Source: Escherichia coli (GTDB taxonomy: Bacteria > Pseudomonadota > Gammaproteobacteria > Enterobacterales > Enterobacteriaceae). From it: a stretch of DNA of 64,000 nucleotides. Shown here one piece after another: positions 53,594 to 60,534 of this stretch. Within the stretch, counting starts at the first letter, position 1, and every line of letters begins with the position of its first letter. Position numbers and translations under genes: made by a program. Below the pieces are notes generated by a model. It was not told the origin of the DNA. It ran no database searches and was given only the letters and a program-made list of their open reading frames with translations. The stretch is taken from assembly GCF_024223415.1 (NCBI RefSeq), contig NZ_CP100500.1, one strand, 5' to 3'.

Positions 53594-56500
53594 ATGGGTA
53601 AAGGCAGCAGTAAGGGGCATACCCCGCGCGAAGCGAAGGACAACCTGAAGTCCACGCAGTTGCTGAGTGTGATCGATGTCATCAGCGAAGGGCCGATACA
53701 AGGACCGGTGGATGGATTAAAAAGCGTGCTGCTGAACGGTACGCCGGTGCTGGACAGTGAGGGGAATACCAATATATCCGGCGTCACGGTGGTATTCCGG
53801 GCCGGTGAGCAGGAGCAGACGCCGCCGGAGGGATTTGAATCCTCCGGCTCCGAGACGGTGCTGGGTACGGAAGTGAAGTACGACACGCCGATTACCCGGA
53901 CCATCACGTCGGCAAACATCGACCGTCTGCGCCTGACCTTCGGTGTGCAGGCACTGGTGGAAACCACCTCAAAGGGGGACCGGAATCCGTCGGAAGTCCG
54001 CCTGCTGGTTCAGATACAGCGTAACGGTCGCTGGTTAACGGAAAAAGACATCACCATTAAGGGCAAAACCACTTCACAGTATCTGGCTTCGGTGGTGGTG
54101 GATAACCTGCCGCCGCGCCCGTTCAGTATCCGGATGCGCAGGATGACACCGGACAGCACCACAGACCAGCTGCAGAACAAAACGCTCTGGTCGTCATACA
54201 CCGAAATCATCGATGTGAAACAGTGCTACCCGAACACGGCACTGGTCGGTGTGCAGGTGGATTCGGAGGAGTTCGGCAGCCAGCAGGTGAGCCGTAATTA
54301 TCATTTTCGCGGGCGCATTCTGCAGGTGCCGTCGAACTATAACCCGCAGACGCGGCAATACAGCGGTATCTGGGACGGAACGTTTAAACCGGCATACAGC
54401 GATAACCCGGCCTGGTGTCTGTGGGATATGCTGACCCACCCGCGCTACGGCATGGGGAAACGTGTTGGCGCAGCGGATGTGGACAAATGGGCGCTGTATG
54501 TCATCGGCCAGTACTGCGACCAGTCGGTGCCGGACGGCTCTGGTGGCACGGAGCCGCGCATCACCTGTAATGCCTGGCTGACCAGGCAGCGTAAGGCGTG
54601 GGATGTGCTCAGTGATTTCTGCTCGGCGATGCGCTGTATGCCGGTATGGAACGGGCAGACGCTGACGTTCGTGCAGGACCGACCGTCGGATAAGGTGTGG
54701 ACCTATAACCGCAGTAATGTGGTGATGCCGGATGATGGCGCGCCGTTCCGCTACAGCTTCAGCGCCCTGAAGGACCGCCATAATGCCGTTGAGGTGAACT
54801 GGAGTGACCCGGATAACGGCCAGGAGACGGCGACAGAGCTTGTGGAGGACACGCAGGCCATTGCCCGTTACGGTCGTAACGTCACGAAGATGGATGCCTT
54901 TGGCTGTACCAGCCGGGGGCAGGCACACCGCGCCGGGCTGTGGCTGATTAAAACGGAGCTGCTGGAAACGCAGACCGTGGACTTCAGCGTGGGTGCCGAA
55001 GGGCTTCGCCATGTGCCGGGCGATGTCATTGAAATCTGTGATGATGACTATGCCGGTATCAGCACCGGTGGGCGCGTGCTGGCGGTGAACAGCCAGACCC
55101 GGACGCTGACGCTCGATCGTGAAATCACGCTGCCATCCTCCGGTACCACGCTGATAAGCCTGGTTGACGGAAGTGGCAATCCGGTCAGCGTGGAGGTTCA
55201 GTCCGTCACTGACGGCGTGAAGGTGAAAGTGAGCAGTGTTCCTGACGGCGTTGCTGAATACAGCGTGTGGGGGCTGAAGCTGCCGACGCTGCGCCAGCGC
55301 CTGTTCCGCTGCGTGAGTATCCGTGAGAACGACGACGGCACGTATGCCATCACTGCCGTGCAGCATGTACCGGAAAAAGAGGCCATCGTGGATAACGGGG
55401 CGCACTTTGACGGCGACCAGAGCGGAACGGTGAATGGTGTCACGCCGCCAGCGGTGCAGCACCTGACCGCAGAAGTCACCGCAGACAGCGGGGAATATCA
55501 GGTGCTGGCGCGCTGGGACACGCCGAAGGTGGTGAAGGGCGTGAGCTTCCTGCTTCGCCTGACCGTGGCAGCGGATGACGGCAGTGAGCGGCTGGTCAGC
55601 ACGGCCCGGACGACGGAAACCACATACCGCTTCAGGCAACTGGCGCTGGGGCGTTACACGCTGACGGTCCGGGCGGTAAATGCCCGGGGGCAGCAGGGAG
55701 ACCCGGCGTCGGTATCGTTCCGGATTGCCGCACCGGCAGCGCCGTCGCGGATTGAGCTGACGCCGGGCTATTTTCAGATAACCGCCACGCCGCATCTTGC
55801 GGTTTACGATCCGACGGTACAGTTTGAGTTCTGGTTTTCGGAAAAGCGGATTACCGATATCAGGCAGGTTGAAACCACAGCCCGTTATCTTGGTACCGGA
55901 AGGCAGTGGCTTGTCTCCGGCCAGAATATTAAACCTGGCCATGATTATTACTTTTATATCCGCAGTGTTAACACTGTCGGTAAATCGGCATTCGTGGAGG
56001 CAGTCGGTCGGGCGAGTAATGATCCTGCCGGTTACCTTAATTTTTTCAGGGGGGCGATAAATAAAACGCATCTGGGACGGGAGATCAATGAACGCATTGA
56101 TGCCTCTGCACGGCGCACTGAAGTTGAGCAACTGGAGAATGCGATTAACCGCGAAATGACGCAGCTGGAGAAAGATGTGAGGCAGCGTGCGGAGCGTGAT
56201 ATCGCAGAGGTGACGAAAAAAATCACGGCGTCTGAAAACAGCATAACGGAACTGGTGGCGAAAAAGAGCGGTGAACAGTCAATGGCCATTGCGGAAGTTG
56301 ACAGAAAAGTTGACAGGATGGGAAGCGAAATCCGGCAGACAGTAAGCAGGAGCACGGAGGAGAACAGCCGACAGATAGCGCAGATCAGACAGTATGTTGA
56401 TGATAAGGGAAGTCAGATCACACAGAGCACGGATAAAAAACTGGGATCCTGGAATGCCAGCATTGAGCAGATACAGAAAGTTCAGGAGGACACGCGCCGG

Positions 56501-57325
56501 AACCTGAACAGCATGTGGGCTGTGAAGCTGCAGCAGACACGGGATGGACGTCTCTATATTGCAGGTATTGGTGCCGGAATCGAAAATACGTCTGACGGAA
56601 TTCAGAGTCAGATCCTGATGCAGGCAGATCGTATTGCGATGATTAACCCGGAAAATGGCAATACAACACCTTTGTTTGTAGCTCAGGGTGATCAGCTGTT
56701 CATGAATGATGTTTTCATGAAGCGACTGTTTGCGGTGAGTATCACCTCATCCGGCAATCCCCCGGCATTTTCCCTGACACCGGACGGGCGTCTGACGGCG
56801 AAAAATGTCGATATCAGTGGTAACGTGAATGCGAATTCGGGCTCGCTCAACAACGTCACGATTAACGAGAACTGTCGGGTTCTGGGAAAACTGTCTGCAA
56901 ACCAGATTGAAGGCGATCTCGTTAAAACAGTGGGTAAGGCTTTCCCCCGTGACTCCCGTGCACCGGAGACGTGGCCATCAGGGACCATTACCGTCAGGGT
57001 TTATGACGATCAGCCGTTTGACCGGCAAATTGTTATTCCAGCGGTGGCTTTCAGGGGGGCCAGACATCCGCGGAAGGATAAGGAGCCTTATTCGTCATGC
57101 CGCCTGATAGTGAAGAAAAACGGGGCTGAAATTTATAACCGAACGGCTCTGGATAATACGCTGATATACACGGGTGTTATTGATATGCCTGCAGGCAGTG
57201 GCGTAATGACACTGGAGTTTTCGGTATCAGCATGGTGGGTAAATGGCTGGTATCCCTCAGCAAGTATCAGCGATTTGCTGGTTGTTGTGATGAAGAAAGC
57301 CACTGCAGGCATCACGATTAGCTGA
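53594..57325 (+). CDS. J: host specificity / central tail fibre protein J
   Basis: [37 protein letters not shown]...; 1243 aa; lambda gpJ-like over most of its length, with a divergent coiled-coil segment near residues ~820-1000. Confidence 0.9.
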
Positions 57326-57383
57326 ATTTTATAACCCAGATACGGGCGCCAGAAATGGCGCCTTTTTTATTTGTGGAGCGAGT

Positions 57384-59198
57384 ATGGCGGCTGTAAAAAT
57401 TTCAGGCGTGCTGAGGGACGGAACCGGAAAACCGGTACCGGGATGCATTATTGAGCTGAAAGCGAAGAGAACCAGCGAGACAGTCATCGCCACGACAGTG
57501 GCTTATGGCATGCCGGAAGAGACGGGGAGTTACAGTATGGATGTGGAGCCAGGAATATACAGGGTGACACTCAATACAGAAGGTTACCGTCCTTCGTATG
57601 TGGGAGATATCGTGGTCAGGGAGGATTCTTCACCGGGAACACTGAATAAATTTCTGATGGAGATGGAAGATGCTCCTTATTATCCGAAGGCGTTGTCAGA
57701 GCTGGAGGCTGTGGTGCAGTCCATACTGCACAGAGCAGAGTCCGCGGCATCTGAGGCGGAGGAAGCCCGGAAACGAGCTGCATCTGCCCGGGGACCACGA
57801 GGAGAGAAAGGGGATACTGGTGCTCGTGGTGAAAGAGGCATTACCGGGCCACAGGGGCCAAAAGGTGAAACAGGAGCACGTGGCCCGGCAGGACCACAGG
57901 GACCAAAAGGTGAAACAGGTGAACGCGGTCCGGCAGGTCCACAGGGACTAAAGGGCGATACAGGTGAACGCGGCCCGGCAGGTCCACAGGGACCAAAGGG
58001 TGAAACAGGTGCACGCGGCCCGGCAGGTCCACAGGGAGCAAAGGGCGAAACAGGTGAACGCGGCCCGGCAGGTCCACAGGGAGCAAAGGGCGAAACAGGT
58101 GCACGTGGTCCGGAAGGCCCTCAGGGTCTGAAGGGAGAAAAGGGTGAGCGAGGAGAAAAAGGCCCTAAGGGGGATAAAGGAGATCCGGGAGGTCCACAGG
58201 GACCAAAGGGGGATACAGGTGAACGCGGCCCGGCAGGTCCACAGGGATCAAAGGGCGATACAGGTGAACGTGGCCCGGCAGGTCCTCAGGGACCAAAGGG
58301 GGATACAGGTGAACGTGGCCCGGAAGGTCCACAGGGAGCAAAGGGTGAAACAGGTGAACGCGGCCCGGCAGGACCACAGGGACCAAAAGGTGAAACAGGT
58401 GAACGCGGTCCGACAGGTCCACAGGGAGCAAAAGGTGAAACAGGAGCACGCGGTCCGGCAGGTCCTCAGGGACCAAGAGGAGAGTCAGCCCGTGGACAAC
58501 TGCTGAATGGTGATCTGAACCGACTGGGACGAGTGACCGATCAGGGTGATTATTATCAGCCATCAGACAGTGGGGCTACACGAGAAAATAATTATCCGAT
58601 TCAGAGAGCGGGTTATCTTCAGGTAAGAGTTGGTGCATGGGGATATTGCCAGCATGAATATACAACCTGGAACCCACCACGAAAGTTCGTAAGAACTGTT
58701 ACTGGTAATTTTACCGGTAATGGCCCCTGGTCTGAATGGAAAGAGCTGGGAGCCCAGGGGGAGCGTGGTCCACAGGGACCAAAAGGTGAAACAGGTGCAC
58801 GCGGTCCGGCAGGTCCACAGGGGCCAAGAGGGTATACAGGTGAACGCGGGCAGACAGGTCTACAGGGGCCAAGAGGGTATACAGGTGAACGCGGTCCGGC
58901 AGGTCCACAGGGGCCAAGAGGAGAAGCGGGGCGGCCAGCGAGCGTCGGAAGTGTTTATTCCGTGGGGTCTTATGTTCTGGGGATCATAGAACGAAATCAT
59001 GAGATAACAAATACCCGTCAAATACCCGGGTATCGTATCAGACAGGCCGTTATTGTGTCGTCGTCATCGGATAAACTTACAGATATCCGCTTTTTATTTG
59101 GCAATCCTATGCTTGGTACATGGATGTTATGCACAACTAACATGACGGTGAATAATATCATTGGGACGATTTGGGGCCTGTTTCAGAGAATACGGTGA
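57384..59198 (+). CDS. side tail fibre protein with collagen-like Gly-X-Y repeats
   Basis: Phage tail-fibre-like N-terminus then long (GxxGPxGxK/R)n collagen-like tracts ([16 protein letters not shown]...). Confidence 0.8.
57780..58930 (+). repeat. tandem DNA repeats encoding collagen-like triplets
   Basis: Repeated ~45-bp units (ggtgaaacaggtgaacgcggcccggcaggtccacagggaccaaaggg and variants). Confidence 0.75.
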
Positions 59199-59212: not shown

Positions 59213-59788
59213 ATGAAGGTCGATAAAATCACGTCACCAGTGTGGGCTGACAGGGGTCATACGACCATAAACTGTATAGTGAAGTTTTCAGACGCGGAAA
59301 CAGAATGTGTATTTACAGCAAGTGCGGATGATCCTGAGTCTTACGGTCGTGAAATATTTGAAGCCTGCATAAGAGGTGATGCAGGGCCGGTAGGTGAGTA
59401 CCGGGCAAATGATGATATGGCTGTGGAAGAAGCACGCAGGATGAAAAACGCGGAGATAAATGCCTGGCGTGATGCGATGGAGGCGTCAGGGTATGTTTTT
59501 GAGCACAGAGGACGGAAATGGGATTATGGAAAGGAAACCATGACACGTCTTGGAATGTCGGCATCAGCGGCCAGAGGCGGTGTGTTGCCGGAAGGATTTT
59601 TCTGGACGGACGCAGAGAATAATGATGTACCGATGACGGCAGATGAACTGATATCCCTGAGTGATGCTGCTGGTAAAGCGATGTTCAGGAAAGGCCTTGA
59701 AATACATATAAGGCAAAGGGAGATGAAAAAGGCAATAGCAGAACTGAGTGACAGTGAAACCATTCTGGCGTACAGGGTTGGATGGTGA
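59213..59788 (+). CDS. hypothetical tail-fibre-associated protein (191 aa)
   Basis: ORF directly after the tail fibre gene with a GGAG-type RBS; not recognisably a lambda Tfa. Confidence 0.4.
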   Translation: MKVDKITSPVWADRGHTTINCIVKFSDAETECVFTASADDPESYGREIFEACIRGDAGPVGEYRANDDMAVEEARRMKNAEINAWRDAMEASGYVFEHRGRKWDYGKETMTRLGMSASAARGGVLPEGFFWTDAENNDVPMTADELISLSDAAGKAMFRKGLEIHIRQREMKKAIAELSDSETILAYRVGW

Positions 59789-60534
59789 AACTGATAAAAA
59801 AACCCCTCTGAAAATTCTGTCAGAGGGGGGCAAGGATCTATATTTATTATGCAGTAATGCTTTCACTCCGGTAATTAATTTCCGTGATTAACTGCTTTCG
59901 ATCAATAAAGGAATTGCAAAAAGGTGATCTTGTTCACGACATCGTGGATGATAATATGCCTGATGTCTGAATCCGGAAACAGTGATCTGGCGGGTTTCAT
60001 GTGAAGTTGACGGATAAAAAAATCCGCACGACCAGACAGACGTGCGGTTTACGAAATTCGTAACAAGAGGCTTTTCTACGGATCACGTGGTGCGTGCCAC
60101 GTGAAATTTTTGTAGCGCAAAATGTGTAATGTGTAAATACAAGGAAGGAAAAAGTTAAATCGGTGGAAGTCCATGCCTGCCACATGTATGTCTGCATTCC
60201 TCGTTTTGAACAGAATTCTCACCAGACATCGTGAATTTCTCATTCAATCATCAGAGATATTAACCAGGATTTTTATTGTTTTGTGATATCAGCAGTGCAG
60301 GTATACAGACATTAAAGTAATCAGGTTTATTATAACCACCTTTACAAAGTTGTATGTGTTTATAATTTAAGGATTTTAATCCCAGTCGTTTTCTGCTGCT
60401 TAAATTGAGGGCGCATATTATACACAATAATATTCCTGGCATTATTAAATTAATAAAAGAGGATTCTTATCACTGTATTTTTGCTCCGCACTACCGTTCT
60501 GGCTGGTGAAGTAATAATACAGGAGAATAACAGA

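Follow-up and report, generated by a model that had tools for sequence, protein, structure and literature searches.

Collagen-like shafts in the tail fibres of Escherichia coli prophages, and the variation of these shafts in length, have been in print since Ghosh et al. described a set of E. coli prophage collagen-like proteins with Col domains of variable length (2012, PLoS One 7:e37872, PMC3368898); the locus reported here is a real but ordinary example. Their experiments dealt with EPclA and EPclB, which are found in O157:H7 prophages and Stx phages (for example ECs2717, Z1483 and phi24B gp61) and combine an N-terminal PfN domain with a collagen-like shaft, a PCoil of 109-116 aa and a PfC C-terminus, with a Pf2 repeat between the Col domains of EPclB. 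For EPclA, circular dichroism, ultracentrifugation and electron microscopy established a trimeric collagen triple helix, a dumbbell shape and a C-terminal trimerisation domain (PMC3368898). The third class, EPclC, is represented by ORF-401 of P-EibA from E. coli ECOR-9. The other closely related system is the side fibre of Ur-lambda, gpStf (PDB 9E7M; Sci Adv 2025, PMC12617516), a trimer that speeds adsorption and whose N-terminal collar domain, resolved by cryo-EM, docks the fibre on the tail; the attachment site in the virion for lambda Stf-type fibres is the gpV/gpM junction.

The gene considered here lies at positions 57384-59198 of a 64,000-nucleotide stretch of E. coli DNA (the window; all features below are on its plus strand unless stated) and encodes a protein of 604 aa, whose relatives in RefSeq are annotated as 'prophage tail fiber N-terminal domain-containing protein'. 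On the strength of the open reading frame, the Pfam families PF08400 and PF01391 and the PHROG tail fibre families, we regard it as an stf-like side tail fibre gene of EPclC type. PF08400 matches aa 3-133 with 137 bits (cut-off 26.6). By phmmer, the first 94 residues, which form the collar or PfN domain (57384-57665), match residues 1-94 of Ur-lambda gpStf (9e7m_Ta; E=3.4e-30), with aa 3-94 of the fibre aligned to residues 2-93 of the gpStf collar at ~58% identity over 92 aa. In both phages, moreover, the gene follows J in a lambda-type tail operon. The naming of the product as a side tail fibre in the initial annotation is borne out by the collar match, PF08400 and the position after J, and assignment to the lambda Stf type is supported. 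Beyond the collar the two proteins part company. The lambda shaft is described as a gp37-like coiled coil, whereas here it is collagen-like; and the distal part of gpStf binds OmpC and needs Tfa, whereas the C-terminal domain here is unrelated.

The collagen-like portion consists of two blocks, both within the one intact reading frame. Col1 (57792-58487, aa 137-368) contains 77 Gly-X-Y triplets plus an extra Gly, and Col2 (58749-58937, aa 456-518) contains 21. In translation the runs are without interruption over aa 137-268 (44 triplets), 270-368 (33) and 456-518 (21), giving 98 triplets in all, with the one additional Gly at aa 269. Pfam Collagen (PF01391) is matched in 6 stretches with a score of 161 bits, the cut-off being 27.2. 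At the DNA level, Tandem Repeats Finder reports two arrays of period 45, at 57849-58476 (14.3 copies; score 599, rising to 731 at period 135) and at 58767-58921 (3.4 copies; score 240). The unit of 45 bp encodes 15 aa, or five triplets. When a 45-nt consensus unit was searched for with up to 3 mismatches, all 5 matches fell within the fibre gene, and none was found in any of 100 shuffles. The longest exact repeats between units are 51 bp, one such pair lying at 57882-57932 and 58362-58412, 480 bp apart. The collagen-like tandem repeats noted initially, including the motif then quoted, are thus present, although the interval given, 57780-58930, is ~10 nt off the block limits of 57792 and 58937 and encloses a non-collagen segment at 58488-58748. 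Pairwise identity of the units runs from 55 to 100% with a mean of 80%, the core units being 86-100% identical to one another. Open reading frames in other frames of the repeats (58144-58506 and 58720-58989 on the plus strand; 57841-58104, 58165-58563 and 58711-58917 on the minus strand) were set aside as by-products of stop-poor repetitive DNA rather than genes.

Col1 is itself made up of two sub-arrays, starting at 57837 (1a) and 58200 (1b), separated by a degenerate stretch in which the repeat spacing is 75 rather than 45 and by the sole Gly-Gly register break of the block, G-D-P-G-G-P-Q-G (58179-58202, aa 266-273). An interruption of the form G-X-P-G-G-P-X-G in the first Col domain is listed by Ghosh et al. 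(PMC3368898), and the motif recurs in P0017 and P0042, two distant relatives, as a conserved hallmark of this family of proteins. The commonest triplets are GPQ, GER, GPA, GET and GPK, with Pro at X and nearly absent at Y, which matches the usage that Ghosh et al. describe (PMC3368898).

In architecture and genomic setting the fibre fits the EPclC class, whose named members include ORF-401, ECED1_1681 and ECED1_2081 and which Ghosh et al. describe as PfN followed by one or two Col domains, often without a PCoil. Shared with EPclC are PfN (PF08400), the lack of a long PCoil, two collagen domains with the Gly-Gly break in the first, a C-terminus unrelated to PfC, a strain-variable collagen length and a prophage setting with a YadA-like gene just downstream. 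One difference is size, the listed Col1 domains of EPclC measuring 106-118 aa against 232 aa here, about twofold. The resemblance to EPclA and EPclB lies in PfN and the collagen-like shaft; by tblastn the Stx-phage tail fibre genes show 54-57% identity over aa 3-340. The PCoil, PfC and Pf2 modules of those proteins are absent here, neither PF06820 (PfC) nor PF03406 (Pf2) giving a Pfam match in the fibre protein, and the C-terminal domain differs from those on which the published experiments were done (PMC3368898). Between collar and Col1 there are only ~42 aa, a short Ala/Glu-rich neck (aa 95-136, 57666-57791) into which PF08400 extends as far as aa 133; to judge from lambda Stf and EPclA, it probably forms a trimeric helical bundle.

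Two further non-collagen domains complete the protein. The mid-shaft domain or knob (aa 369-455, 87 aa; 58488-58748, 261 nt) is predicted to be beta-rich; searched alone, it matches no Pfam family at E<=10, though a homologous module occurs in two non-collagen tail fibres (P0018 and P0019). The C-terminal domain (aa 519-604 plus the stop, 86 aa; 58938-59198), also beta-rich in its predicted fold, contains the motifs VGS(F/Y)VL, PGTW..C and G(L/I)F(Q/E)RI, which in a motif alignment are kept in four tail-fibre subfamilies. PF06820 was not matched by the whole protein at E<=0.01 or by aa 519-604 alone at E<=10, and NCBIfam, run on the whole protein, placed no family over either domain. Against 1.84 billion representatives, phmmer found only 6 matches to the 86-aa domain, 2 of them close, and because of this scarcity its kinship to other fibre C-termini rests on the motif alignment. 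An AlphaFold2 model of aa 369-604 from a 16-row alignment was of low confidence (mean pLDDT 47, pTM 0.33), and for that reason the folds and roles of both domains are inferred; the C-terminal domain is presumed to serve as trimerisation nucleus and receptor-binding tip. For the gene as a whole, megablast against the phage collection returned nothing, tblastn brought up partial or distant matches and no others, led by PhiR5_1 at 41% identity, and an exact look-up in a 15-billion-protein collection found neither the window protein nor any of eight alleles from complete genomes.

The gene is part of a complete lambda-like E. coli prophage, with integrase, gpA terminase, lambda portal, S49 protease, capsid E, tube, tape measure and lysozyme genes. 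Directly upstream is gene J (53594-57325), encoding the 1243-aa central tail fibre or tip attachment protein (Pfam Ig_J, FNIII-A_GpJ, Phage-tail_3 and Ig_GpJ_C). Downstream, starting 15 nt past the fibre stop, is a gene for a 191-aa DUF4376 protein (59213-59788; PF14301 over aa 73-180 with 73.7 bits, cut-off 25, and PHROG tail families), so that the order J, fibre, DUF4376 is that of a lambda-type tail operon; the fibre and DUF4376 genes are found as a pair at all related loci examined. Two DUF4376 proteins of Alteromonas phages, V22 gp27 and A5 gp9, are experimentally required fibre chaperones (PMC7289586, PMC10579305), and by analogy the neighbour here is a candidate tail-fibre chaperone of the V22 gp27 type. 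Pfam gives only DUF4376 for it, so it is apparently of a different type from lambda Tfa. Just beyond, in the position of eib, is a gene for a YadA-like adhesin, which had no match at E<=1e-5 to the solved EibD fragments. The gap between J and the fibre gene contains a terminator-like hairpin, and IS66-family insertions are seen in relatives, truncating the fibre gene at L006 and cutting the chaperone gene at L008.

We consider it very likely that the region encodes the shaft of this prophage's side tail fibre, and that its 45-bp units misalign and thereby change its length. Three chains would join in one fibre, their collar domains gripping the tail a little above its tip, as those of Ur-lambda Stf do, followed by the short helical neck and a shaft of collagen triple helix. 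At 0.286 nm per residue Col1 would extend ~66 nm, with one conserved Gly-Gly kink, and would lead through the globular knob to Col2, of ~18 nm, and to the C-terminal domain at the fibre end. That domain most likely nucleates the trimer and sets its register, aided by the adjacent DUF4376 chaperone, and most likely bears the receptor-binding surface as well. Misaligned pairing of units, whether by replication slippage or by unequal homologous recombination, would gain or lose whole units, preserving the frame and the Gly register and shifting the fibre length by ~4.3 nm per unit; pairing of sub-array 1a with 1b would delete the Gly-Gly break, and pairing of Col1 with Col2 would delete the knob.

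The comparison among related prophages, comprising 10 alleles from complete genomes and 31 from databases, shows that repeat number does differ between isolates, as had been foreseen. The non-collagen parts are of constant length (136, 87 and 86 aa), while the collagen blocks change in steps of 15 aa, or 45 bp: Col1 measures 57, 72, 87, 102, 117, 132, 157, 187, 232 or 247 aa and Col2 30, 33, 45, 48, 60 or 63 aa, with whole proteins spanning 282-616 aa. In some alleles Col1 and Col2 have fused and the mid-shaft domain has gone (it is missing from L009, L010, P0014 and P0015); the domain is dispensable in natural alleles. If the 480 bp separating the two 51-bp repeats of the window are deleted in silico, the Gly-Gly break goes with them and, the frame being kept, the product is a protein of 444 aa that is colinear with a real database allele (P0134) and identical to it at 437 of 444 positions. 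Change is concentrated in the arrays even where length is equal: the window and L001 differ at 40 of 885 nt of collagen DNA as against 3 of 930 nt elsewhere (Fisher p=6e-10). A diversity-generating retroelement was tentatively set aside as the source of the unit differences, the variable positions spanning several base types; no reverse transcriptase was noticed among those prophage ORFs that had been scanned for other purposes. Isolates from France, Ecuador and Germany share one allele without a single DNA difference, which means that change is not rapid; the array is variable, not hypermutable.

Could these length differences be mainly artefacts of assembly, produced by collapsed or mis-joined repeats rather than by biology? 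Short-read drafts certainly fragment the gene: of the 16 protein clusters nearest to it, 10 are represented solely by contigs of less than 2 kb, mostly annotated 'partial', and one scaffold (UDHK01000047.1) consists of scrambled N-joined fragments, with 4 N-gaps, four Gly-Gly motifs, two gene ends and no start. The intact short alleles (Col1 of 57-132 aa) also come mostly from drafts, and some of these could be collapsed repeats; the gene is present in 23 RefSeq complete genomes, not one of which has a short allele, and those retrieved have a Col1 of at least 157 aa. Yet complete genomes differ among themselves, with lengths of 457, 529, 556, 577, 586, 601, 604 and 616 aa; two independent complete assemblies of NRZ14408 give the same 1806-bp gene; and every variant retains frame, Gly register and domain boundaries. 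The 441-aa allele, absent though it is from the RefSeq complete genomes, is found with normal synteny on a 4.1-Mb contig and on many others of 0.2-1 Mb, which weakens the case for its being purely a product of collapse. Artefact as the main source of the differences is unlikely in our estimation, and the earlier warning that assembly is error-prone here is apt for short-read drafts but not for finished genomes. It is less likely still that the prophage is defective and the gene in it a relic in decay, its repeats drifting freely and its protein no longer made or used: the IS66-family insertions in relatives and the hairpin ahead of the gene could be read in that way, but the 604-codon frame is intact with its 98 triplets in perfect register, the non-collagen domains are 99-100% conserved between alleles, the prophage has a full lambda-type morphogenesis and lysis module, and the chaperone gene has been kept with the fibre gene.

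A quite different reading would make the protein a cell-surface collagen-like adhesin, a mimic of host collagen in the manner of streptococcal Scl1/Scl2, Legionella Lcl or Bacillus BclA, rather than a part of the virion. Like the fibre, those proteins do have tandem Gly-X-Y arrays that lack hydroxyproline and are specified by repetitive DNA, and their collagen-like regions too vary in length between strains. They are surface proteins with signal and anchor modules, however, whereas the N-terminus here is a phage collar domain and not an export or anchor module, and the gene sits in a tail operon between J and the fibre chaperone gene. NCBIfam does return Lcl, SclB and SclA at ~195 bits, but these matches are below threshold (184-196 bits for NF038329, NF038330 and NF046116, against cut-offs of 325-500), and the matches found in the PDB, to animal collagens and BclA, reflect Gly-X-Y composition. 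We regard this reading as extremely improbable.

For short-read assemblies of E. coli this means that the fibre gene is a predictable point of breakage or mis-joining, and that long reads should underlie any allele call, prophage typing or pangenome count made there. In the annotation of relatives, one intact variant without the mid-shaft domain was labelled a pseudogene by PGAP.

That repeat number is a length dial under selection, and not neutral noise, seems to us doubtful. Were it so, gain and loss of 15-aa units of ~4.3 nm, along with the removal of the Gly-Gly kink or the knob by recombination, would tune the reach and flexibility of the fibre in passing the O-antigen or capsule of different hosts, and the 45-bp periodicity would be maintained because it renders such changes frequent and always in register. 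The shafts of the natural alleles have a calculated range of ~17 to ~100 nm, and their series of 15-aa steps, together with the natural variants with and without the knob, offers a possible ready set for tests of fibre length and adsorption.

The fibre gene is an intact open reading frame (57384-59198, +; 604 aa) that encloses 57780-58930, where the initial annotation had placed near-identical collagen-like repeats of about 45 bp in two blocks; both that observation and its interpretation hold, the phenomenon is known from the literature, and RefSeq already annotates the gene in relatives. Tandem Repeats Finder detects two period-45 arrays, at 57849-58476 (14.3 copies, with a higher-scoring 135-bp super-period) and 58767-58921 (3.4 copies), and in translation the Gly-X-Y pattern is unbroken over aa 137-268, 270-368 and 456-518, giving 98 triplets and one additional Gly. 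The Pfam collagen model scores 161 bits against the protein (cut-off 27.2), and the consensus 45-mer, allowing up to 3 mismatches, matches five times, only in the fibre gene, and never in 100 shuffles. Pairwise identity of the repeat units is 55-100% overall and 86-100% among the core units, and the longest exact repeats in the gene are of 51 bp. The segments that actually code for collagen, 57792-58487 and 58749-58937, refine the original limits; they are separated by a 261-nt non-collagen domain, and collagen DNA has a G+C content of 62-66%, vs. 51% for the window. The first block consists of two sub-arrays flanking a degenerate stretch (spacing 75 rather than 45). The open reading frames of 68-132 aa found within the repeats on the opposite strand (57841-58104, 58165-58563 and 58711-58917, -) and in other frames (58144-58506 and 58720-58989, +) were rejected as genes, since repetitive G+C-rich DNA is poor in stop codons.

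The host is E. coli, as the bglX-dld flank of the window is 100% identical to many strains. The lambda-like prophage spans ~17.8 kb to ~62.8 kb and encodes an integrase, gpA-type terminase, lambda-family portal, S49 protease, capsid E, tail tube, tape measure, lysozyme and J; three tRNA genes (Met-CAT, Arg-TCT and Thr-TGT) lie within it at 33777-34009. The fibre ORF begins 58 nt downstream of J. PF08400 ('prophage tail fibre N-terminal') covers the initial 133 aa at 137 bits, and the collar domain of Ur-lambda gpStf (PDB 9E7M, cryo-EM) aligns with aa 3-94 (E=3.4e-30, ~58% identical); together with the place after J, these matches identify the product, by homology and position, as a side tail fibre, the name it had been given at the outset. 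The Ur-lambda collar, located at the gpV/gpM junction, is made of twelve such domains and holds four trimeric side fibres, which make adsorption faster (PMC12617516). A DUF4376 gene (59213-59788) starts 15 nt downstream of the fibre gene; proteins of this family are tail-fibre chaperones needed in experiments by Alteromonas phages V22 and A5 (PMC7289586, PMC10579305). J is directly followed by the fibre gene, the 58-nt gap (57326-57383) containing a terminator-like hairpin (57344-57363) and then a T-run; in related prophages this junction is occupied either by lom or by a pair of small ORFs of 225 and 663 nt.

The collar (aa 1-94, homologous to lambda gpStf residues 1-94) is followed by an Ala/Glu-rich neck (aa 95-136; probably a helical bundle), the collagen domain Col1 (aa 137-368, with G-D-P-G-G-P-Q-G at 266-273), a mid-shaft domain of 87 aa (369-455), Col2 (aa 456-518, 21 triplets) and a C-terminal domain of 86 aa (519-604). 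No Pfam or NCBIfam family was found for the mid-shaft and C-terminal domains. The former occurs, at up to 69% identity, in two non-collagen E. coli tail fibres (P0018 and P0019), followed there by a PF03406 repeat, while the latter has VGS(F/Y)VL, PGTW..C and G(L/I)F(Q/E)RI motifs common to three further fibre subfamilies. AlphaFold2 predicts beta structure in both (aa 369-604), in an unreliable model with a mean pLDDT of 47.

Ghosh et al. 2012 (PMC3368898) sorted the 'EHEC prophage collagen-like proteins', whose Col domains vary in length, into four architectures named EPclA to EPclD. EPclA proved in experiments to be a dumbbell-shaped trimer; its trimerisation domain is C-terminal, and its collagen triple helix is genuine and melts at 42 degrees C. 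With PF08400 and two Col domains, and lacking the long PCoil, PF06820 and PF03406, the protein studied here belongs to the EPclC class, an assignment made on architecture. The Gly-Gly interruption motif reported by those authors is exactly the one in Col1, and triplet usage agrees with their account, with Pro at X and nearly none at Y; the commonest triplets are GPQ, GER, GPA, GET and GPK.

Close relatives of the gene are present in 23 of 5,426 complete E. coli genomes, none of the 23 carrying an identical allele (best, 97.7%). Among the alleles compared, taken from 15 of these 23 records and from 31 intact protein-database entries, the non-collagen parts are constant in length (136, 87 and 86 aa), apart from four alleles without the mid-shaft part. 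Repeat number does differ between isolates, as had been suggested: Col1 measures 57, 72, 87, 102, 117, 132, 157, 187, 232 or 247 aa and Col2 30, 33, 45, 48, 60 or 63 aa, in steps of 15 aa, or 45 bp, the 3-aa offsets in Col2 being due to two alternative endings of the block. The four alleles lacking the mid-shaft domain (loci L009 and L010, proteins P0014 and P0015) have a fused single collagen domain of 60, 72, 235 or 355 aa, and the losses in L009 and L010 look independent because their junctions differ. The two 51-bp exact repeats of the window sit 480 bp apart, and an in-silico deletion between them is in frame, loses the Gly-Gly break and yields a 444-aa product colinear with a real allele, P0134 (437/444 identical), which illustrates a way in which length changes could come about. 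The alleles of the window and of locus L001, which are equally long, differ at 40 positions within 885 nt of collagen DNA vs. 3 in the remaining 930 nt (Fisher p=6e-10), the pattern expected from unit reshuffling; the repeats are therefore the hot spot of change within the gene. NRZ14408, F374 (France), LR-31 (Ecuador) and DG341-1 (Germany, chicken) nevertheless share one 1806-bp allele without any DNA difference, so the array is not hypermutable.

The proposed difficulty of assembly stands for short-read drafts and not for complete genomes. Ten of the 16 closest clusters in a large protein collection occur only on contigs below 2 kb, mostly under the label 'partial', so short-read contigs evidently end inside the repeats. 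The first 4.2 kb of UDHK01000047.1 (L012, GCA_900482235.1) is a scaffold end of scrambled, N-joined pieces of collagen repeat that derive from two or more copies of the fibre gene. It contains four N-gaps, the Gly-Gly motif four times, the end of the gene twice and its start nowhere, and a chimeric ORF (P0001) joins the first 17 codons of the DUF4376 chaperone to collagen. Two independent complete assemblies of NRZ14408, on the other hand, agree base for base over the fibre gene. Alleles that are intact but short (Col1 no longer than 132 aa) come mostly from drafts and occur in 0 of the 23 complete genomes; the series is probably real, at least partly, since a 441-aa allele lies in normal synteny on a 4.1-Mb contig and many 0.2-1 Mb contigs. 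Nothing in the window's own copy points to mis-assembly: the frame is intact, the register is perfect, and the copy matches complete genomes exactly in domain lengths and in sub-array 1a. Caution is warranted at this locus in short-read assemblies and also in pseudogene calls. In RefSeq the fibre gene of E. coli AR_0085 (NZ_CP029741.1; L009, 2501-4234) has pseudogene status ('missing C-terminus'), yet its ORF is intact (577 aa), and its 355-aa collagen domain exceeds the 322 aa given as the longest in the family (PMC3368898).

Beyond the fibre homology, synteny and allele series observed here, we infer a folding pathway, a receptor and a recombination route. Most likely, three chains would be brought into register at the C-terminal domain, aided by the DUF4376 chaperone, collagen helices would then form from that end, and the collar domains would afterwards dock on the tail. 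Mispairing of 45-bp units, whether in slippage or in unequal recombination, would change length while keeping frame and Gly register. The rise of collagen is 0.286 nm per residue, from which we calculate a shaft of ~66 nm plus 18 nm, ~4.3 nm per unit, and a range of ~17 to ~100 nm across natural alleles.

Just past the DUF4376 gene lies a strong G+C-rich hairpin (59803-59828), with an A-run on one side and a T-run on the other, that resembles a two-way terminator ending the tail operon before an adhesin cargo gene. This gene (60481-61644, +) encodes a YadA-like trimeric autotransporter of 387 aa with a YadA_anchor domain, in the position of the eib adhesin gene that follows the fibre genes in P-EibA, source of the EPclC type example (PMC3368898). 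One relative's equivalent is named 'immunoglobulin-binding protein' by PGAP. Immunoglobulin binding is at most putative for the present protein, as only its YadA anchor had matches in PDB, the solved EibD fragments being unmatched at E<=1e-5. Genes for a sigma-70 region-4-like HTH protein (61705-62160, +) and a DinI-like protein (62544-62792, -) follow, and related prophages conserve the block of cargo genes, with an adhesin gene of variable length. Among 11 related loci for which at least 2.5 kb of flank was retrieved, five (L001, L004, L006, L008 and L009) have IS66-family (ISCro1-like) elements no more than ~2.5 kb from the fibre gene; one such insertion truncates the fibre gene in L006 and another cuts the DUF4376 gene in L008, and the region may be an insertion hot spot.
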